From: Candidatus Binataceae bacterium
Lineage (GTDB): Bacteria; Desulfobacterota; Binatia; Binatales; Binataceae
Assembly: GCA_030041155.1 (NCBI GenBank)
Contig: JASHOJ010000142.1
Coordinates: forward strand, 437-64,436
Direction: 5' to 3'
DNA: 64,000 nucleotides
Shown: piece by piece, positions 3,969-39,143 of the stretch
How positions within the stretch are numbered: the first letter of the stretch is position 1
How the letters are laid out: every line of letters starts with the position of its first letter
Notes under the pieces: generated by a model
Database searches by the model: none
What the model was told of the DNA's origin: nothing
Seen by the model: the letters and a program-made list of their open reading frames with translations, nothing else
Position numbers and translations under genes: made by a program

Positions 3969-4766
3969 TCAGCGCTGTTCCTGCTGCAGCTTCGCGTCTT
4001 CCGCCCGCAGTTTTGCGAGTTTCTGGTCAGTGGGAATCAGATCGCGGTCTATCTTCTTCGAGGCAAGCTGAGAGCTGTGCTGGCTTGGCAATTCGCCATC
4101 AATTTTTTCCAGTGCTTCCTTGGCAAGCCGCCGCACCATCGGGCTCTTATCTTCATCAGCGGTCTTGATCAGAATCGGCGTCGCTTTGTCACTGCCAATC
4201 TCGCCGAGCGCGAACACTGCCGTGCCGCGCGCCTGGTCGTCAGTCTGCTCCTCCAGATACTGCATCACCGGCAGCACACCCTTGAAGTCGCCAATGCGGC
4301 CGAGAGCGGCCACCGCGTGCAGCTTGACCGCGGGTTCCGTCTGGCGCAGGAACAAAAGCTGCCCCATCGGATCAACCGCCTCGTTAGCTTCGCGCGATCC
4401 CAGGATATCGATCGCTTTCATCTTCACACGGATGTCGGGGTCGCTCATGCTTTGAATCAGGATGCGATTGACTTCGGGATCGTCGAGATTGCGCAACTTG
4501 TTCAATTCGCCTACCCGCACATTGGGATCGGCGTCCTTGAGCCCGAGCTTCACGTCCTTGATAATCTTGAAAGCCGACTCCTTCTGCGCGCGGGTAGCAA
4601 CATCGTCAACACCGGCTTTCATCATTCCTTGGTGCATCATTGGACTGTTGGTAATGGCGCTTCCCAAGCCTTCACCACCGACCTCGTCCTGAGCGCGGGC
4701 AGCGAAAGGAACGAGCAGAAAAGCACAAATCGCAACAACCCAGAATACAATTCGGCCTTTCGACAT
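3969..4766 (-). CDS. HEAT-repeat protein with N-terminal signal/TM segment
   Basis: Track ORF is trimmed to the internal ATG at 4766 (MSKGRIVFWVVAICAFLLVPFAARA), which has GGAGG upstream. Repeated DPxVR/AxxALG HEAT-like units follow (DPNVRVGELNKL, DPDIRVKMKAIDILG, SPMVRRLAKEALEKI). Confidence 0.7.
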   Translation of the reverse strand: MSKGRIVFWVVAICAFLLVPFAARAQDEVGGEGLGSAITNSPMMHQGMMKAGVDDVATRAQKESAFKIIKDVKLGLKDADPNVRVGELNKLRNLDDPEVNRILIQSMSDPDIRVKMKAIDILGSREANEAVDPMGQLLFLRQTEPAVKLHAVAALGRIGDFKGVLPVMQYLEEQTDDQARGTAVFALGEIGSDKATPILIKTADEDKSPMVRRLAKEALEKIDGELPSQHSSQLASKKIDRDLIPTDQKLAKLRAEDAKLQQEQR

Positions 4767-4806
4767 TTCAGGAGTCCTCCGCGATCGGCCAGAATTATCG
4801 GTCACC

Positions 4807-5721
4807 ATGGATCGTAATGCAAGCAATGACGGCGCAGAATGGCGCGTCGCACCAGCGGGCGCACACAAGCGTGGTTTGGCATTAATAGCACTCGTGTGCG
4901 CCGCCGCGCTGCTCGCAACCGCCGCGTCCGCGGCGCGCCCGGCACGCAGGCATCCCACTCCCGTGCCGACTCCTCAGGCGCTGCCGGCAGATATCAAAGT
5001 GCCGCAGTACGAAGCTGGGGCGATGCCCTTTCATGACGGCGAAAAGCTGGTCTATCAGGCTTCGTGGATCGGAATTCTCGCGGCGCGCGCGCGATTCACA
5101 CTCCATCGCGACAAGCATGACCCCTCGATGTGGACCGCGGAGGCGTGGGTCGAAACCACGGCAGTGGTCGACGTGCTGTTTCGGATGCGCGATTACATGC
5201 GCGAGAGCTTTGCGGCTGATTCGCTTGAGACCAACGAAATCTATCAGCGCCAATCCGAGAATCGCCGCTTTGACGAATACACGATAAGCTTCGACCGGGA
5301 AAAGGATCTGGTTGTGTCGAAGAAAAAAAATCACAAAGGCGTGCTGACCCGCGAATTTATCGCGAGCAATCCGTGGGGCCCGATTTCTGGTGCGATGATG
5401 GCGCTGACCCAGGCGCTGACTCCCGGCTCCGATTATCGGTACGACGTGTTCAGCGGCACCAATCGCTACGTGTTCAGCTTCAAGGTCGATGACCGCGAGC
5501 GGATTCGCACCCCGATGGGGGTGTTCGACGCGCTCAAGATCACGCCCGGCGTAGTCTATCTGTCGAATGGAAAGCTCCGCAGCGAAGCAAGCGAAACCAC
5601 GATTTGGGTAAGCGCCGACAAACGTCGTCTTCCGCTTCGGATGGAAGCGTCGGCGTTTATCGGCACCGTAACCGCGGATCTGGTGGAGGTTGATGGTAGC
5701 GACTCGATCGCAAGCCGTTAA
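4807..5721 (+). CDS. secreted hypothetical protein (possibly DUF3108-like)
   Basis: Hydrophobic signal-like N-terminus (LALIALVCAAALLATAASAA). No recognisable catalytic motif. Family assignment is from memory only. Confidence 0.45.
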   Translation: MDRNASNDGAEWRVAPAGAHKRGLALIALVCAAALLATAASAARPARRHPTPVPTPQALPADIKVPQYEAGAMPFHDGEKLVYQASWIGILAARARFTLHRDKHDPSMWTAEAWVETTAVVDVLFRMRDYMRESFAADSLETNEIYQRQSENRRFDEYTISFDREKDLVVSKKKNHKGVLTREFIASNPWGPISGAMMALTQALTPGSDYRYDVFSGTNRYVFSFKVDDRERIRTPMGVFDALKITPGVVYLSNGKLRSEASETTIWVSADKRRLPLRMEASAFIGTVTADLVEVDGSDSIASR

Positions 5722-6275
5722 CGGCCTCGCAATCGATCGAGGATTATCGCGCCGGCCGCTCGAACCGACAGATGATTGTAGTCATCGGCGCCGGAAATTG
5801 CGTCGAGCAGGATATCGGCGCGCTCGGCGACCTCGGGCGCAAGCCCGAAGCCGGTGCCCAGCAGGACCATTGCCGGCGGCGCATCGCCTCGCGCAAGGCG
5901 CGCACGCAAATCCGCGAACTTGACTGCGCCGCAGTTGCGGGCCGAGGTATGCACCAGAATCGGTACGGCGCCCGAGATCTTTTCCGCCTCGTTGCGCGCA
6001 TCGTCGAGCGTCGCCACGACCCTGATCAGCTCCAGTGCCTCGCGGCGGCGCGAATCGAACGATCGTCCGAAATCAAAACGCCAATGCTCGATCACGTCGG
6101 CAGCGAACTCGCGCTGCGAGGGGACCGGATGCACGACAAAAAATGCGCGAACGCCATAGGTGCGCGATGAGCGCGCGAGATCGTGAAGGTCGAGACTGGT
6201 TATCGCAGAGGTGACAATCCCGCCGTTGCGGTTGACGACCGGATGATGCAGCAGCGCCAGAAAAAGATCGGACAC
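5718..6275 (-). CDS. putative SPOUT-class RNA methyltransferase (small, trmD-linked)
   Basis: 185-aa ORF immediately downstream of trmD on the same strand. Resembles the ~180-aa predicted RNA methyltransferase family frequently found next to trmD. Not verified. Confidence 0.45.
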   Translation of the reverse strand: MSDLFLALLHHPVVNRNGGIVTSAITSLDLHDLARSSRTYGVRAFFVVHPVPSQREFAADVIEHWRFDFGRSFDSRRREALELIRVVATLDDARNEAEKISGAVPILVHTSARNCGAVKFADLRARLARGDAPPAMVLLGTGFGLAPEVAERADILLDAISGADDYNHLSVRAAGAIILDRLRGR

Positions 6276-6276
6276 G

Positions 6277-6960
6277 TCAGGACTTGCGTTCCGCCAGATC
6301 TGGCCGGCGATGCGCGGTCCGCTCTCTGGCCTGCGCTTCCCGCCACTTCTGAATTCGCGCGTGATTGCCCGATAGAAGCACTTCAGGCACCCGCATCCCG
6401 CGAAATTCCTCGGGCCGCGTGTACTGCGGATATTCCAGGCTGCCGGAGCCGAATGACTCTTCGTTTAATGAGTCGGGATTTCCGAGCACGCCCGGAATCA
6501 GCCGTCCGACCGTCTCGATTATCACCATCGCGGCGATTTCTCCTCCACTCAAAACATAATCTCCAATCGATAACTCCTGGTCGACCAGCGATCGCACCCT
6601 CTCGTCAATTCCCTCGTAGCGACCCGCGATGAGCATCAGCGGAGCGCCGCGATTTGCGAATTCGCGCGCCATCGATTGGTTCATGACCTCGCCTTGCGGA
6701 GTCAGCAGAATTTTCCTGATGCCGGGATTTGCCGATGCGACAGTTTCGATCGCGGCCGCCAGTGGTTCCACCCGCATCACCATCCCGCTGCCCCCGCCGT
6801 AAGGCGTATCGTCTACCTGCTTGTAATTCCCGAGGCCAAACGGGCGCAAAGGATGTGTCCGGATAGTGATTTTTGCTTGTTCGAGCGCCCGCCCGATAAT
6901 GCCGCCGCGAAACGTGGATTCGAACATTTCGGGAAATAGCGTTATGACGTGAAACTCCAT
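6277..6960 (-). CDS. trmD: tRNA (guanine37-N1)-methyltransferase
   Basis: [15 protein letters not shown]...YGGGSGMVM... is canonical TrmD. The upstream extension in the track ORF was trimmed to ATG at 6960. Confidence 0.9.
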
Positions 6961-31506: not shown

Positions 31507-32556
31507 ATGAAAATCGCCGGAGTTGCGAGCAGGCTTCCCGAAAACGTTTATCCGCAGCACGTGCTGACCGACGCTTTCGCGCGGTACTGGGGAGAGCGTC
31601 TGGTAAATCCTTCGGTTCTCAAGCGAATTCACTCCCGAACCGGCGTCAGAAGCCGCCATCTCGCGTATCCGCTCGAACGTTATGCGCAGTTTCAGCGTTG
31701 GGGAGAAACAAATGCCGCGTGGCTCGCGGCGGCCGAGAAGCTGGGCGCCGACGCGATAGACATGGCGCTCGAGCGCGCCGGAGTTGCGCGGCGCGAAGTT
31801 GACGCGTTGTTTATCGTCTCGATCACCGGAGTCGCGTGCCCGTCTATCGATGCCAAGCTGGTCAATCGGATGGGCCTGCGATCGGACGTGAAGCGCACTC
31901 CTATCTTTGGACTCGGATGCGCTGCCGGAGCGATCGGCCTAACCCGCGCGGCCGATTACGTGCGCGCCTATCCTGACCAGACCGCGATTCTGCTGGCGGT
32001 CGAGCTGTGCTCGCTTACGATGCAGCGAGACGATCTCTCGACCCTGAACCTTATCTCGACCGGATTGTTTGCCGACGGAGCTGCGGCTGCGGTTGTGACT
32101 GGCAAAAATCGCACCGCCCGTGGCCCCGAGATAATCGCCACCCGGTCGGTCTTCTATCCCGACACGGAAAGGATCATGGGATGGGACATCACTGAGCGCG
32201 GATTTAGTCTGGTGCTCTCGCCCGACATACCCGATATCGCCCGCTGCCGGCTAAAGGCGGACGTTGACGCATTTCTTGCCGATCAGTCGCTTAGCCTCGG
32301 CGATATAGGCTGCTGGATTGCGCATCCGGGCGGTCCGAAGGTGCTTGAGGCGATCGAGGCGGCGCTGAAACTGAACAAGGCCGAGCTTGCGGCCTCGTGG
32401 GAGTCGCTCGCGAAGGTGGGAAATATGTCGTCCGCATCGGTGCTTTGCGTGCTAGAAGACACTATCCTCGATCGCCATCCCGAGCCGGGCACGATAGGCA
32501 TCATAGTCGCGCTCGGACCGGGATTTTGCGCCGAGATGCTGCTGGTGCGCTGGTAG
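31507..32556 (+). CDS. type III polyketide synthase (chalcone/stilbene synthase superfamily)
   Basis: 349 aa. N-terminal MKIAGVASRLPENVYPQ. Candidate active-site Cys in GLGCAAGAIGL, plus C-terminal GFGPG-like HPGGPKVL block. Confidence 0.85.
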   Translation: MKIAGVASRLPENVYPQHVLTDAFARYWGERLVNPSVLKRIHSRTGVRSRHLAYPLERYAQFQRWGETNAAWLAAAEKLGADAIDMALERAGVARREVDALFIVSITGVACPSIDAKLVNRMGLRSDVKRTPIFGLGCAAGAIGLTRAADYVRAYPDQTAILLAVELCSLTMQRDDLSTLNLISTGLFADGAAAAVVTGKNRTARGPEIIATRSVFYPDTERIMGWDITERGFSLVLSPDIPDIARCRLKADVDAFLADQSLSLGDIGCWIAHPGGPKVLEAIEAALKLNKAELAASWESLAKVGNMSSASVLCVLEDTILDRHPEPGTIGIIVALGPGFCAEMLLVRW

Positions 32557-32627
32557 CGCTCTTTTGGCTCCGCGATTTGGCGTATAAAGTATCCGCTACT
32601 TGGCGCGAAACGCGGAGCGGGAAGCAG

Positions 32628-33347
32628 GTGGAGAGGCTTTTTCGGGGGCGGTTCACAGTTCTGCTTGCGATGCTGGTGCTGCTGGTGGGTGTGCTCCCGT
32701 TTTTTCAGCAGGAAATAGAGGCTCGTGAGCTGCTCAGAATGGTGCTGTCGCTGGTGTTTATGGCGGCTCTGTACGCCAGCACGCGGCGGCGGCGCGACGT
32801 GGTTTATGCCGGCCTTCTGGTCGCACCTGCCCTGATTGGACGATGGCTGCCGCAACATGAGGTCAGCGAAACCATTCAATTGGTTGTGGCGCTCTTTACC
32901 GCCGCGTTTCTTGCCTATGTGACAGCCGCGGTTCTGAGCCAAGTGCTGCGTCCGGGCCGCGTGACTTACGACACGATAAGCGGCGCGATTTGCGCCTACT
33001 TTCTGATTGGGCTTACGTGGTCGTTCCTATATCTGGCGATCGACCTTGGATGGAACAATGCGTTTGTGGTCGCGGGAGCGCCAGCCAGCCTTGGCAGCGT
33101 GGAACTCATCCGGCTCGAATTGCAGCGGCTCATCTACTATAGCTTCGTCACCCTGACGACACTCGGCTATGGAGACATCATTCCATCGATTCCGCCGGCG
33201 CGCGCGTTATCGATGCTGGAAGCGATAGCGGGCCAGATGTATGTCGCGATCCTGATCGCGCGCCTGGTCGGCCTGCACATCATTCATTCCGAGCGGGAAC
33301 ATGCGCCCGAAACGAAACATGATTCGCCGACAAAGCGCCCCGCCTGA
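32628..33347 (+). CDS. two-TM potassium channel family protein (selectivity filter TTLGYGD)
   Basis: TLTTLGYGDIIPS selectivity-filter signature between TM helices. GTG start at 32628 chosen to avoid overlap with the PKS gene. No RCK domain. Confidence 0.7.
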   Translation: MERLFRGRFTVLLAMLVLLVGVLPFFQQEIEARELLRMVLSLVFMAALYASTRRRRDVVYAGLLVAPALIGRWLPQHEVSETIQLVVALFTAAFLAYVTAAVLSQVLRPGRVTYDTISGAICAYFLIGLTWSFLYLAIDLGWNNAFVVAGAPASLGSVELIRLELQRLIYYSFVTLTTLGYGDIIPSIPPARALSMLEAIAGQMYVAILIARLVGLHIIHSEREHAPETKHDSPTKRPA

Positions 33348-33868: not shown

Positions 33869-34648
33869 ATGGCTTACGGCAGCCGCCCCGGTCATCCGCA
33901 CGGTCTCTTGTCGGTCTGGCCGCGCTGGGAGCGACTGGTTCATCAGGTCCGTCCGGTGCAGCCGATTCCTGGCGCAAAGCACGGACTGTTCAGGCTGCGC
34001 TACCGCACTTATCGCGGTGAGATATTCGCGCTTCCCGACGGAACTATCGTGTGCCACGGATGCACCGTCGCGGATTTGCACCTTGACGGGATGGCGATGC
34101 TGAACCTGGTCAAGGCCGGCGGCAACCCGTTCCGCGGATGCCGAGAGGAGCTGCGCCTTCTGGCCGCCTCGCTTATCGAGAGCGATCCCGACGGGCGGCT
34201 GGTCGCGTTCAAAGGCGTCACCCTGCTCGGCAACGCCGCCGAACGTATCGGATTTTTTGTCCGCCAGCGCCCCGTCGGAAGGATCAAGGCTCGGATTGAA
34301 CGATGGTTCATGTCGGGTTTTCTGATTCTGTACACAGTCGACGGGATGGAGCGGCTCGGGCGCGGCGCCACAATGCGGGAAAACCCGCGCGAGGTATGGC
34401 TCACGCGTCAAACCCTGATACGGAAATACGGGCCGAAAAACCACTCCAGTGATGTTGCTCAGAACAGCGGAAGCGCGATGCCGGAGGTCACCAGCGCGCC
34501 GGTCGCCACGCCCATCAGCGCCTCGCCCGCTATCATCCCGGCGGCGAACAGCACTCCGACTGCGCCGGACTCGCCGTCGCCTTGGCCCAGGCGGGCGCGC
34601 AGCAGCGCGCCAAGCAATATCGTGACGCTTAGTCCGAACGGCAGATAG
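33869..34648 (+). CDS. hypothetical protein (3' end overlaps convergent OPT transporter gene by ~190 nt; may be truncated/shadow)
   Basis: The central portion has protein-like composition (…IFALPDGTIVCHGCTVADLHLDGMAMLNLVKAGGNPFRGC…). The N- and C-terminal tails are Arg/Pro-rich and likely spurious. Confidence 0.35.
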   Translation: MAYGSRPGHPHGLLSVWPRWERLVHQVRPVQPIPGAKHGLFRLRYRTYRGEIFALPDGTIVCHGCTVADLHLDGMAMLNLVKAGGNPFRGCREELRLLAASLIESDPDGRLVAFKGVTLLGNAAERIGFFVRQRPVGRIKARIERWFMSGFLILYTVDGMERLGRGATMRENPREVWLTRQTLIRKYGPKNHSSDVAQNSGSAMPEVTSAPVATPISASPAIIPAANSTPTAPDSPSPWPRRARSSAPSNIVTLSPNGR

Positions 34649-36270
34649 AGACCGATCGCAACCGGCATGATCGGCGCTCGCCACGACGAGCCGGCGCGTT
34701 CCAGCGCCACGTCCACGATTCCTATCGCTGCCGCAAGCACCGCCCCCGCGATTATCATCGTCCACGGCAGACCGCCGCGGAAAACCCCCTGCGCGACCTT
34801 GGCCATCAGGAACGCCTGCGGCGCCGCAAGCGCATTGGCCTTTGCGGTTGCCGTTCCCGCGATTCCATAGCCGCTAACCAGCAGGTTGAGGATCGGTGCG
34901 ATCACCAGCGATGCGGCTATCGCACCAATCACAACCCCGATTTCAAGCGACCGCGGAGTCGCGCCGACGTGATATCCGGTCGCGAGATCGTGCAGCGAGT
35001 CACCCGCCATGGCGGCCGCGGTGCACACAACCGCTCCGGCAAGAATCGCAAGCCGCGGTCCGAGGTTAACATCGCCAATCCCGGCCCACCTTAGATAAAC
35101 CGCGATCGCCAGCAGCACTATCACGGTGACGCCCGAGACCGGATTATTCGACGAGCCAACGATTCCGGTCAGATAGCCCGCGACCGCCGCGGCAAAAAAA
35201 CCGATTATGGCCAGGATTATCGCAAGCGAGACGCTGAGCCATATCCGCCCCGAAAGCATCAGGCAGAGCGCGAAGATGATCGGCACCGCAAGACCCTGCG
35301 CCGAAAGAAGAGCGCCGGCGGAGAGATCGGTGTCCTCGCGCGAGCGGGCAACTGCCTCGCGGCGGGTCCGTATCGCCCGGATGCTATCGATTAGCGCGGT
35401 GCCGATTCGGCTTCGAAGCCGCCACAGAGTCGCAATGCCGCCGGTGAGCATCGCGCCGACGCCCAAGTAGCGAACCTGAGTGCTCCACAGGTGAGATGCT
35501 GCCGCCGCCGCGGATCCGGTCGCCGACGCATGATACGAGAGCATCAGCGCCGGAATCGCGATGAACCACGCAATGGCGCCGCCGGCGAATACCAGCGCCG
35601 CGATTCGCGGCCCAATAATGTAGCCGACGCCGACGAGCGCCGCCGATATGTCAACCGAGCTCGCAATCGCCGCTCCGCCAACCCATCGCGCGCCCGAGAG
35701 CGCACCCGGCACGACACCGAATACGTCCTGAACCGCCTTCAGAGCCGCCGCAACCAGCCCGCCCCACGCAAGCGGCGCGACGCTGGCGCTCGCCTCTCCG
35801 GCGCGCAGCACCTCGGCGCAGGCGAACCCTTCGGGAAACGGCAGCCGCTCATCGACGACATAGGCGCGGCGCAGGAACACGACCAGCAGCGCGCCCATCG
35901 TGCCGCCGGCGGCTGACAGCAGCGTCACCTGCACATAAGGCAGCCGGCCATGCCCGCTGAGAATCACAATCGCGGGGAAAGTGAAGATTGCGCCCGCCGC
36001 CACCGCCTCTCCCGCCGAGGCGATGGTCTGAACGACGTTGTTCTCCAGGATGGTTGCGCCGCCAAGAACCCGTAGCAGCGCCATCGATATTACCGCTGCC
36101 GGGATGCTCGCTGAGACGGTCATGCCCGCATACAGGCCCAGGTACGCGTTGGCGGCGCCGAGTATCAGCGCGAGCACGATTCCGAGCACGATCGCGCGCG
36201 CGGTCAGCTCGCGTATCGCGGCCACCGATCGCGCTGCTACACCAGGCTCGGGCGTCGGATCGTTGCGCAT
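34459..36270 (-). CDS. OPT family oligopeptide transporter
   Basis: 603 aa with >12 TM helices. N-terminal TARAIVLGIVLALILGAANAYLGLYAGMTVSASIPAAVISMALLR is typical of OPT. Confidence 0.85.
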   Translation of the reverse strand: MRNDPTPEPGVAARSVAAIRELTARAIVLGIVLALILGAANAYLGLYAGMTVSASIPAAVISMALLRVLGGATILENNVVQTIASAGEAVAAGAIFTFPAIVILSGHGRLPYVQVTLLSAAGGTMGALLVVFLRRAYVVDERLPFPEGFACAEVLRAGEASASVAPLAWGGLVAAALKAVQDVFGVVPGALSGARWVGGAAIASSVDISAALVGVGYIIGPRIAALVFAGGAIAWFIAIPALMLSYHASATGSAAAAASHLWSTQVRYLGVGAMLTGGIATLWRLRSRIGTALIDSIRAIRTRREAVARSREDTDLSAGALLSAQGLAVPIIFALCLMLSGRIWLSVSLAIILAIIGFFAAAVAGYLTGIVGSSNNPVSGVTVIVLLAIAVYLRWAGIGDVNLGPRLAILAGAVVCTAAAMAGDSLHDLATGYHVGATPRSLEIGVVIGAIAASLVIAPILNLLVSGYGIAGTATAKANALAAPQAFLMAKVAQGVFRGGLPWTMIIAGAVLAAAIGIVDVALERAGSSWRAPIMPVAIGLYLPFGLSVTILLGALLRARLGQGDGESGAVGVLFAAGMIAGEALMGVATGALVTSGIALPLF

Positions 36271-36408: not shown

Positions 36409-36927
36409 TTATGAGCCGAAACCGCCGCCGGACGCCTGTGGCATTTCGACCGGCTTGCCAGCCTGACGCCAGCCGGTGATACCGTCCTTCATCTCGCTTA
36501 CGTCTGTGTACCCTGCCGCAACCGCCCGCCGGGCGGCTTGATCGGAGGCCATTCAATGCAGGTTATGGCAATAGAAAACCAGCTTCGCGTTGTGGTCGGA
36601 AGGCAGCTCTTCGGCAACGTTGTAATGATCTGCTGAGGTCAGCGGACGCGCGCCTGGAATCATGCCTTCTTCGGCGCGGACGCTTGGCACATTCGCATCG
36701 TAAATACGCACGTGCGAATCGGGATTCGCCATCAAGCGGGCGAGATCATCCACATGGATAATGTGGATATTTACGGCCGGTTCGGGCTTATTGTTGATCA
36801 GCGCGCCAATATCGACTGCCCACGCGCGCGACGCGCCAAACGCTACGGCCACAACGAGCATCGCGGTCGCGGCCAGCGTTATAGCGCCCTTCCTCAAAAG
36901 ATGTCGCGATGATTGCATCCGCCGCAT
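36409..36927 (-). CDS. periplasmic single-domain rhodanese-like sulfurtransferase interrupted by in-frame TGA (candidate Sec codon or pseudogene)
   Basis: Signal peptide. HVRIYDANVPSVRAEEGMIPGARPL...KLVFYCHNLH-TGA-MASDQAARRAVAAGYTDVSEMKDGITGWRQAGKPVE aligns end-to-end with the rhodanese fold. The TGA (36553-36555) falls in the active-site loop 5 residues after the Cys. The frame is otherwise uninterrupted. Confidence 0.55.
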
Positions 36928-37007: not shown

Positions 37008-39143
37008 CTATTTCGCTTGCCTGATAGCGACGTACGAGCGTTCGAAAATGTCCAAACGCTTGCTCAGGGTCGCCTCTGCATAGTCGTGCTTTCTAACTGT
37101 CCGAAGCTTCGAAATCGAGCGGCGGATCATCGACGCCGGAAGTGTAAACACCATGCGTTTATGTTCGTGCCATATCTCTCGAAGCCACGTCCGCTCCTTC
37201 TCGGTCATTCCTTCGCTTTCCGTTCGATAGACGATCAAACCGAAACGACCATAACTTTGGCCTAAATAGCTCAGCATCTGTCGAAAATCGTCGCGCCCGA
37301 TCTCGACAAAGTTCTTAACTTCCACAGTTAACTGTCGGGTGGCATAGTCCTCAAACACTCGGCGCCAAAAACCGCCTTGTGCCAAGTTCGTAGCAACTAT
37401 GTCGCGCTGCTGCACGTTTCCAGCGTTTGGCTTAAATTGGATGTTCGAAAGTTTGCCCGCGAAAAGGATCCTAAATGCCCGCAAAACCCAATCTTCGAAA
37501 CCTGAATATCCATCATGCCCTAAAGCTATCCGAGGCAGCTCCTCCAGTACTTGTCCGAGGCGCCTAGTCCGAATATCATGGAAGTGGGCTACCCGTTCCC
37601 GAGATTCGGGGTTAAGCCCAGGTTGTTCGAGCTCATCATCCGCGTCGATCACAATGCTATCTTGACCGATTTCCGCAGTCGCATTTAATGCGCGCCAGTA
37701 GCATGGATGAATCGCAATTATTGCGTCGCGTTCCATGTCCAGTAGGTTTGCAGACGCGCCGTCATGGCAGAAGTGGTAATGATCGCTACTAGCATCTTTA
37801 AGCCCGACGAAACCTACGCTGTACAAAGCAACAAAGGCCTCTTGGGCTGAGCCAAACAGTGCAAAATCTGCTGCTGGCTGAGATCCATATCGTTCGCTTT
37901 TGATCGCATTATCAAGCAGCTCCAAAACGAGATGGTATTGATTTAAAGCAGGTTGATTTTCAAAGACTCGGACGAACAATCCAAGACCAGGAAAGACCGT
38001 GTCGTATTCTTTGAGGAGATCGTCGAGCCGGTCGGAAGAGATGCGGTGGCTGGTCGAGACGATATCATCATCGATGATCTCGTGGCGCCCTTGACGCACG
38101 GCCAGCACGTAAGAACTGTTCAACAGCACCAGTAAATCGCGCGGTCGATACAAGGTGTGTTTCAGGCAAAGTTCGAAACCTGTTCGGTCCTGCAAACCGC
38201 GGTCCGCAAAGCGATTCCATACTTTAACATCGCTCTCGACATCGCGCAGATCGTCGAACGCGGCGCGTAGCCTATTGGCTATCAAGTGTAGTAGGGACAG
38301 CTCATCCCAATTTAGTCGAAGAGTCGTACCTTCTATGTGCCTTGAAAAGTCCCGGTCGAAATGTGCCAGCGCTCTGAACATGTTGTCGCGAATGAAAAGC
38401 ACGCCATGGATTCCAACCTTAGAATCTGCGAAATCGGCGACAGCCGCAGCCAATCCGCCCAAGATTGCGGTAGCGGCTTCATCGGGAACCCAACCTTCGT
38501 CTAAACCATCCCACAAGATGATGCCCGAGTGACCAGTTGCCGTGAGCATCGCACGTACATTGTCCTCCAACCAATTAACGCGTAGCTCGGAAGCTATCTT
38601 ACCAGGTATATCATGGGGCGATTGCTTGCTCTGGGCTTTTAGTATAGCGGTGCAACGCTGCGCGCCCGCGGAGGTGGCTAGCAGTGAGTGAGCCTCCTTA
38701 TACATCTGAATGTAGGAATGTTCAGACACTCGCGGAAGCTTATAATGACGAGTCGCCTCAAAGATACTTAGAAGTATATCTATCTTCCAAGCGAGACGGA
38801 GAATGGCGCGGCCGGATCGATAATCCGCATGAACCTCTTGCAGAGCTGTTTGTAAGGCAAGCGTCTCGTGCTCTTTAGGTGTAGAAGCGACTAGAAAGTT
38901 ACCTTGATTATGCTGACCGAAATACTCTGCTGTCTTCTGAAAGAGAGCGCTCTTTCCTGTTCCTCTACGTCCGACGACGCAATTGAAATCCCGAGTATAC
39001 ATCAGCGCTCTGTAATCAGCGGTTTCCACGAACGCCTTCGCTAGCATTACCGAATCCGCTTCTGCACGCCCTGCTCCTAGAACGTTACCAACTAGGTCCT
39101 TAGAGCTCCGCGTCATCACGTGTTGAGCCGTAACTTTAGCCAT
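37008..39143 (-). CDS. P-loop NTPase fused to C-terminal PD-(D/E)xK nuclease-like domain; candidate stand-alone defence protein
   Basis: 711-aa ORF. Walker A GRRGTGKS (aa 58-65) and Walker B GIILWDGLDE (aa 207-216). C-terminal region has GHDGYSGFEDWV ... QQRDIVATN ... LTVEVKNF ... FRQML, consistent with an E...D...ExK restriction-endonuclease-like core. Lower GC than flanks. Confidence 0.6.
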   Translation of the reverse strand: MAKVTAQHVMTRSSKDLVGNVLGAGRAEADSVMLAKAFVETADYRALMYTRDFNCVVGRRGTGKSALFQKTAEYFGQHNQGNFLVASTPKEHETLALQTALQEVHADYRSGRAILRLAWKIDILLSIFEATRHYKLPRVSEHSYIQMYKEAHSLLATSAGAQRCTAILKAQSKQSPHDIPGKIASELRVNWLEDNVRAMLTATGHSGIILWDGLDEGWVPDEAATAILGGLAAAVADFADSKVGIHGVLFIRDNMFRALAHFDRDFSRHIEGTTLRLNWDELSLLHLIANRLRAAFDDLRDVESDVKVWNRFADRGLQDRTGFELCLKHTLYRPRDLLVLLNSSYVLAVRQGRHEIIDDDIVSTSHRISSDRLDDLLKEYDTVFPGLGLFVRVFENQPALNQYHLVLELLDNAIKSERYGSQPAADFALFGSAQEAFVALYSVGFVGLKDASSDHYHFCHDGASANLLDMERDAIIAIHPCYWRALNATAEIGQDSIVIDADDELEQPGLNPESRERVAHFHDIRTRRLGQVLEELPRIALGHDGYSGFEDWVLRAFRILFAGKLSNIQFKPNAGNVQQRDIVATNLAQGGFWRRVFEDYATRQLTVEVKNFVEIGRDDFRQMLSYLGQSYGRFGLIVYRTESEGMTEKERTWLREIWHEHKRMVFTLPASMIRRSISKLRTVRKHDYAEATLSKRLDIFERSYVAIRQAK

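Follow-up and report, generated by a model that had tools for sequence, protein, structure and literature searches.

Does an in-frame TGA in the active-site loop of a bacterial rhodanese gene end the protein, or is it read as an amino acid? The question is raised by a gene on the minus strand at 36409..36927 of a 64,000-nucleotide stretch of DNA from a Candidatus Binataceae bacterium (GenBank assembly GCA_030041155.1, contig JASHOJ010000142.1, positions 437 to 64,436; referred to here, at its full length, as the window). A preliminary description of the locus had put forward a selenoprotein, with a recent nonsense mutation or a sequencing error as the alternative. The analysis presented here comes down firmly on the side of the selenoprotein: the TGA at 36555..36553 very probably encodes selenocysteine (Sec), in a gene that is intact. 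The evidence for this includes a column that holds only Cys or TGA among relatives, retention of the TGA in ten lineages, and an RNA hairpin that is specific to the TGA forms.

The gene opens with a 124-residue open reading frame (ORF; 36927..36556, ATG at 36927) that ends in ...KLVFYCHNLH and runs directly into the TGA. Beyond this codon the frame stays open over 36552..36412 (47 codons, MASDQAARRAVAAGYTDVSEMKDGITGWRQAGKPVEMPQASGGGFGS) to a TAA at 36411..36409, so that the whole, as read, is a pre-protein of 172 residues with one Sec, an exported single-domain rhodanese. The Pfam Rhodanese profile (PF00581) spans the TGA and is matched over positions 3-101 of its 102, with a score of 41.3 bits (gathering cut-off 22.2), whereas the product truncated at the TGA (124 residues) scores 20.6 bits and drops below the cut-off. 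The ORF map and this match agree with the frame having been described as collinear across 36553-36555. The C-x4-U spacing proposed earlier is also as found: the TGC codon of the catalytic-position Cys (36570..36568) is residue 120, and the TGA (36553..36555) is residue 125. Cys120 is invariant in four family alignments (A1, A3, A4 and A6).

To place the TGA among its homologues, relatives were drawn from a search of a 5.8-billion-protein collection and the 120 closest were sorted by their state at the TGA column. Cys is present in 82, which are all of the full-length ones (...VFYCxxxxC[MTGS]AS...), and the other 38 end one residue before the column. A residue other than Cys was not encountered there in any of 178 motif-bearing proteins, so the homologue alignment leaves Cys and in-frame TGA as the only states of this position. 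The 38 truncated relatives are distinct and divergent, with 13 different loop sequences that include CHNLH, CHNPQ, CANTH, CADLH and CANWL. In public annotation these short relatives are called "hypothetical protein", and gene callers often add a separate ORF of 38-54 residues right after them.

DNA was retrieved for a varied selection of the short forms, which gave ten non-redundant TGA loci: the window and nine others (L001, L008, L009, L011, L092, L095, L098, L100 and L101), whose proteins are 47-74% identical to that of the window. The layout of the gene is the same in all ten lineages. Each has a TGA at the Sec codon, after which 39-53 codons of intact frame encode a conserved ...ASHEAARRAVAAGYTDVSVM.DGI.GW..AGKP... 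segment.

A hairpin lies just downstream of the UGA in the mRNA, where a bacterial selenocysteine insertion sequence (SECIS) would be expected. The element, 5'-AGCCGCCC-GGC-GGGCGGUU-3' at 36520..36538 of the minus strand, is assigned as a SECIS-type hairpin from comparative constraint, from RNAalifold and from its fit to the published consensus. Its 8-bp stem begins 14 nt and its 3-nt loop (36530..36528) 22 nt beyond the UGA. The hairpin noted in the preliminary description is thus real and in the same register, but its CCGCC arm begins 16 nt after the UGA (the extended stem at 14 nt) rather than at about 13. Bacterial SECIS elements are expected to have a loop of 3-9 nt, a stem of 4-16 bp, a G followed by G or U in the loop, a distance of 16-37 nt from the UGA, and a minimum free energy of -7.5 kcal/mol or lower (PMC13188914, Fig. 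2 legend). The window hairpin lies within every one of these limits (3-nt loop, 8-bp stem, 22-nt spacing, -13.6 kcal/mol). All ten TGA forms carry 5'-RGCCGCCC-GKM-GGGCGGYY-3' starting 14 nt after the UGA, with GGC, GUC or GGA as the loop and energies of -13 to -18.7 kcal/mol.

The hairpin segment encodes the peptide AARRA, which is common also among the Cys forms, and these can therefore serve as a matched control. A metagenome scan with a Cys-codon pattern gave 72 distinct Cys forms, 20 of which encode AARRA in the same columns. The motif GC[CT]GCCCG[GT][CA]GGGCGG is found in 10/10 TGA forms compared with 1/20 of the matched Cys forms (Fisher p = 3.7e-7), and the mean hairpin energy is -15.2 kcal/mol in the former and -7.7 in the latter (Mann-Whitney p = 4.8e-5). 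Third-position identity within the hairpin codons is 0.89 among TGA forms and 0.45 among matched Cys forms, while at other codons with identical residues the values are 0.54 and 0.50; this comparison of codons inside and outside the hairpin controls for the kinship of the TGA forms. RNAalifold yields the same helix, with 97.5% of cells paired and a basal pair that varies between G-C, A-U and C-G. Taken singly, the 71 nt after the TGA in the window have a fold energy that is not unusual relative to shuffled sequences (z = 0.05), and the significance of the hairpin comes from the comparative data. A scan of the window against Rfam gave no match at gathering thresholds, and a permissive scan gave only a chance match to a small RNA; no Rfam family that corresponds to bacterial SECIS elements was found. 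The hairpin thus fits the published bacterial model and is maintained specifically in the TGA forms, and it is by such comparative evidence that decoding of the UGA as Sec, via the predicted element at 36538..36520, is strongly supported. The element is located within the coding sequence, and its geometry is that of a bacterial SECIS recognized by SelB with Sec-tRNA.

A different role for the same hairpin has to be considered, in which it promotes programmed read-through without selenium, the UGA being decoded by a near-cognate tRNA that inserts Trp, Cys or Arg, in organisms without a Sec pathway. Stable structures 3' of stop codons can favour read-through generally, and the window and ~631 kb of related contigs, an uninformative amount of sequence, have yielded no Sec machinery. 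Against this, the column is otherwise always Cys, as is characteristic of Sec sites, and the hairpin agrees with the SelB-type consensus in both its loop sequence and its spacing. In addition, repeated switching between Sec and Cys, as seen in this family (see below), is a known pattern of selenoprotein families (PMC1794560). We consider selenium-free read-through improbable.

The codon that follows the TGA bears on a second possibility, that of a split gene. Translation would stop at the TGA and restart at an adjacent ATG, giving polypeptides of 124 and 47 residues that together form one rhodanese fold. This codon is indeed ATG in the window and in six other lineages, and a separate ORF of 38-54 residues is what gene callers predict there. 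However, in L092, L095 and L098 it is a Thr codon (ACG or ACC), and these loci offer no start codon before the conserved helix. Met appears simply to be common at this position, which in the Cys forms is M, T, G, S, L or I. A split gene would also leave unexplained both the strict equivalence of Cys and TGA and the SECIS-specific constraint, and it is scarcely credible as an account of the locus.

If the TGA were instead a fresh nonsense mutation of a Cys form (TGC or TGT to TGA), the part of the gene downstream of it would be decaying. A single base change is enough to convert a Cys codon to TGA, and gene callers and NCBI do annotate the relatives as truncated hypothetical proteins. The downstream frame argues otherwise. 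In Nei-Gojobori comparisons of all pairs, the 36 codons after the TGA give a ratio of nonsynonymous to synonymous divergence (dN/dS) of 0.23, or 0.18 without the hairpin codons, at a dS of ~0.9-1.2, which is near saturation. The 60 codons before the TGA give a similar value of 0.29. The low ratio after the TGA indicates that the downstream segment is translated in this frame and is under purifying selection. The TGA is moreover kept in ten divergent lineages, its presence can be deduced for 38 distinct database clusters, the identities of 47-74% exclude the other TGA loci as copies of one recent event, and synonymous-site constraint holds the hairpin in the TGA forms only. A pseudogene is accordingly very hard to defend.

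An error at 36553-36555, with TGC, TGT or TGG as the true codon, can be dismissed: single-base errors do occur in metagenome assemblies, and one related contig is clearly rich in indels, but a separate Logan re-assembly of run SRR21679867 reproduces the full gene without a single difference, TGA included, and the same codon is found in nine other lineages from different projects. In the contig just mentioned (L007, ENA contig_10987, 558 kb) the rhodanese gene (4149-4660) is frameshifted just after the TGA. Since its oligopeptide transporter (OPT) gene (4712-6552) is also split in two, this appears to be an indel-rich assembly, whose gene calls should not count as pseudogenes. A genome-wide reassignment of TGA is ruled out, as TGA is an ordinary stop that terminates 14 of the window's 36 confidently called genes, the neighbouring OPT gene among them. 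With conserved TGA codons, a dN/dS of about 0.2 and an identical re-assembly, neither the mutation nor the error suggested in the preliminary description finds support.

Selenocysteine thus stands as the reading of this codon, although several points weigh against it. The TGA forms are related to one another, which limits their independence as samples. In the hairpin the core does not vary and only one base pair shows true covariation, so that the structural support rests mostly on the conservation of synonymous sites. No selA, selB, selD or tRNA-Sec gene was found in the window or in the ~631 kb of related contigs, which is too little sequence for their absence to be informative. The same limit applies to tblastn searches of the window and related contigs with E. 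coli SelD, SelB and part of SelA, which found nothing; with ARAGORN, neither the window nor 16 related loci yielded a tRNA. No further selenoprotein gene was found in the window, where five candidates with an in-frame TGA and a coding-like GC content at third positions proved to be antisense shadow frames. Among the conserved upstream neighbours, a lactonase-like hydrolase of the metallo-β-lactamase (MBL) fold and a GST give no pointer to a sulfur pathway. Finally, the chemistry and the transporter link proposed below are inferred.

The family aligns, in a profile search against the PDB, to the single-domain rhodaneses 6mxv, 2hhg and YgaP with a gap of two residues. In place of the canonical C-x4-R-S the loop here is C-x4-C/U-x-A-S, the second Cys or Sec sitting in the two-residue insertion, and that of the window protein reads C120-H-N-L-H-U125-M-A-S. 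An AlphaFold (AF2) model was made for P0002, the closest natural Cys orthologue of the window protein. In this model the predicted local distance difference test score is 94-98 in the domain, the catalytic Cys closes the LVFYC strand, and the second Cys lies two residues ahead of the start of the next helix. Foldseek returned rhodanese folds only (probability 1.0, root-mean-square deviation about 2 Å). As judged from dN/dS and from the P0002 model, the 47 codons after the Sec codon (36412..36552) account for the final two helices and the final strands of the fold; in a product cut at the TGA, two helices and two or three strands would accordingly be predicted to be missing.

The protein is probably exported, on the strength of its N-terminal sequence. 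Residues 1-37 (36817..36927, minus strand) form a predicted signal peptide, Sec-type in the sense of protein secretion, with MRRMQSSRHLLRKGAITLAATAMLVVAVAFGASRAWA before VDIG. The basic n-region, hydrophobic h-region and A-W-A motif were recognized by eye and by a hydropathy calculation, in line with the signal peptide that had been proposed, and the homologues share the same n/h/AxA architecture.

The second loop Cys (column 125) is invariant among the Cys forms in alignment A1, and neither Cys position varies across the family, of which more than 2,400 members are detectable; this suggests that the two work as a functional pair. As a tentative mechanism, which may well prove wrong, Cys120 and Sec125 could act as a redox-active thiol/selenol pair in the periplasm. 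Cys120 would accept sulfane sulfur or attack a disulfide-type substrate; the selenolate of Sec125, as the more nucleophilic partner, would resolve the intermediate as a selenenylsulfide with Cys120, after which the enzyme would be re-reduced. For a pair that cycles in the periplasm a DsbD-type partner might be expected, by analogy with the name and the residue spacing of TsoB, a known selenoprotein that is compared below.

A gene for an OPT-family oligopeptide transporter (34459..36270, minus strand; Pfam OPT 298 bits, TIGR00733 520 bits) lies on the same strand, 138 nt downstream of the rhodanese gene, and the gap between the two in the window shows no terminator or promoter pattern. OPT follows the rhodanese on the same strand in nine of the ten non-redundant TGA loci (the exception being L011), and also in the noisy L007. 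Among Cys forms the linkage is seen in 17 of 45 testable loci, these being the 17 closest with enough flanking sequence, and not in the more distant Cys forms. The OPT gene is a conserved partner of this rhodanese subfamily. Such a partnership suggests a role in processing followed by import: the rhodanese might act outside the cytoplasm on a peptide-like substrate that bears a thiol or sulfur, and the transporter would then take up the product. Our confidence in a functional link of this kind is lower than in the redox mechanism above.

The named relatives come from metagenome-assembled genomes of Candidatus Binataceae. The window and its relatives have a gene order in common, namely M20 peptidase, amidase, FAD_binding_5, Lactamase_B, rhodanese and OPT. 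The gene had been described as part of a lower-GC island, which its composition does not support: its GC content is 0.59, next to a window mean of 0.60 and ~0.51 for the low-GC neighbour. Acquisition of the rhodanese together with that island is therefore ruled out by GC content and conserved synteny.

The neighbour itself (37008-39143, minus strand) encodes 711 residues with no Pfam match; it belongs to the P-loop ATPase Sll1717 family (NF047389, 217 bits), and towards its C-terminus it shows a weak resemblance to the PADLOC candidate PDC-M36A. It occupies the spot where related Binataceae contigs have a GST or DLH gene. From this position, and from the rhodanese GC content at the window mean, the rhodanese is native and the ATPase gene is probably a horizontally acquired insertion, possibly related to defence. 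An operon of persulfide dioxygenase, GST and rhodanese was considered and rejected, as the MBL-fold neighbour is lactonase-like and the GST of a generic kind, and as both are found upstream, in varying orientation.

Downstream of OPT, most Binataceae loci have one or two conserved genes without a Pfam or NCBIfam match (~212-254 residues; 32283-32942 on the minus strand in the window, 12483-13897 in L092), which may belong to the same module. A few kilobases further on from the rhodanese-OPT pair, L092, L095, L008 and L009 share a conserved polyphosphate-related cluster, made up of genes for a CHAD-domain protein, two thymidylate-kinase-like proteins and a Ppx-GppA protein with an HD domain, with PP_kinase nearby.

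In a neighbour-joining tree of 80 sequences the TGA forms all fall into one subfamily, interspersed with Cys forms. L098, a TGA form, shares 84% identity with the Cys form L021, and L011 (TGA) is placed apart from the main TGA clade. The interspersion implies at least three switches between Sec and Cys, of the kind described for selenoprotein families generally (PMC1794560).

Two Cys forms deserve separate mention. That of L013/L014 (Ga0307373_10022139 / Ga0307374_10027064), with the loop CKNLQC, branches within the main TGA clade and has a decayed hairpin; the protein is of the P0002 type, which NCBI annotates normally in Binataceae. That of L052 (Ga0187781_10054054), ~283 nt upstream of its OPT gene, has a TGT codon together with a complete SECIS hairpin, the only one of the 72 Cys forms to do so, and looks like a recent conversion of Sec to Cys. 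In the wider C-x4-C family, P0058, P0063, P0066, P0074 and P0121 (~250 residues) have a C-x4-C rhodanese followed by a second, canonical rhodanese domain (...FHCAAGFRAKR...), so that a tandem architecture is also present.

For annotation, the consequence is that dozens of public entries, each a truncated "hypothetical protein" with a tiny second ORF, should be merged into one selenoprotein each. The gene also implies a Sec pathway in Binataceae-like soil bacteria; no literature that links the Binataceae lineage to selenium use was found. A C-x4-U rhodanese that keeps the catalytic Cys, carries Sec at the end of an enlarged loop, and is periplasmic and encoded beside an OPT transporter would be a tractable system, and it could reveal the role of the widespread C-x4-C rhodaneses, of which more than 2,400 relatives were found. 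More speculatively, and with the odds clearly against it in full, the uncatalogued exported rhodanese and OPT could form a two-gene module that processes a sulfur- or selenium-carrying peptide (e.g. glutathione persulfide or a selenotrisulfide) outside the cytoplasm and takes it up, and so give a first indication of Sec use in uncultured Binataceae. The result amounts to a correctable annotation error and an uncatalogued selenoprotein subfamily, which is an incremental addition to a field of well over a hundred families.

Knowledge of rhodanese selenoproteins goes back to 2005 (PMC1088965), and by the convention of the field a different Sec site within the same domain makes a separate subfamily. 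A 2026 review of prokaryotic selenoproteins distinguishes five rhodanese forms, with the motifs UxxS, UxxG (twice), CxU (NF041203) and UxxxxU (TsoB, NF045694) (PMC13188914); C-x4-U is not among them.

The best-scoring curated family is TsoB (form 5), which is named at NCBI as a rhodanese/DsbD fusion-like selenoprotein with the motif UxxxxU (Haft and Tolstoy 2025, as cited in PMC13188914). Residues 103-165 of the window protein align with profile positions 99-161, in the rhodanese part, with 47 bits against a family cut-off of 805. The two have in common the x4 spacing of the two chalcogen residues and Sec at the second of these positions. TsoB, however, is a fusion of 572 profile positions with a DsbD-like membrane part and two Sec residues, whereas the window protein is a stand-alone exported domain of 172 residues, with no membrane domain, one Sec, and Cys at the first position. 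The genes also differ in context: those of TsoB belong to a three-selenoprotein Tso operon, while the window rhodanese is partnered by an OPT transporter.

The LYCAU type (NF041203, form 3) is likewise a single domain that keeps the catalytic-position Cys and has Sec a few residues further on. The similarity is weak over the full length (33-37 bits), and the window protein scores 33 bits against a cut-off of 115. The spacing is C-x-U in this type and C-x4-U (FYCHNLHU) in the window, where the loop of the family is two residues longer than the canonical one. The UxxG rhodanese-related sulfurtransferases (forms 2 and 4), known from the Sargasso Sea, Global Ocean Sampling and Olavius symbiont data sets (PMC1088965, PMC2398784, PMC1976440), resemble the window gene in the PF00581 fold, in bacterial Sec decoding with a SECIS element just downstream, and in having Cys homologues. 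In those proteins, however, Sec replaces the catalytic Cys. The window protein has an invariant Cys at this position (TGC 36570..36568) and carries Sec at +5, which places it outside the UxxG forms.

Form 1 (WP_010941598.1, given as UxxS in PMC13188914) also has a PF00581 domain, and the U-M-A-S of the window protein can be read as UxxS as well, so that on this comparison of motifs the window protein may conceivably be of form 1; form 1 is not among the named matches of either homology search. The canonical rhodaneses (YgaP, RPA3614 2hhg, Francisella 6mxv and BH2092 3nhv) share the fold and the position of the catalytic Cys, but their six-residue loop C-x4-R-S has no second Cys, whereas the window family has a two-residue insertion that bears Cys or Sec. 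On balance, and as predicted from sequence comparison, the window protein would represent a rhodanese family with a new Sec site and motif, C-x4-U, outside the TsoB, LYCAU and UxxG forms, with form 1 compared by its motif.

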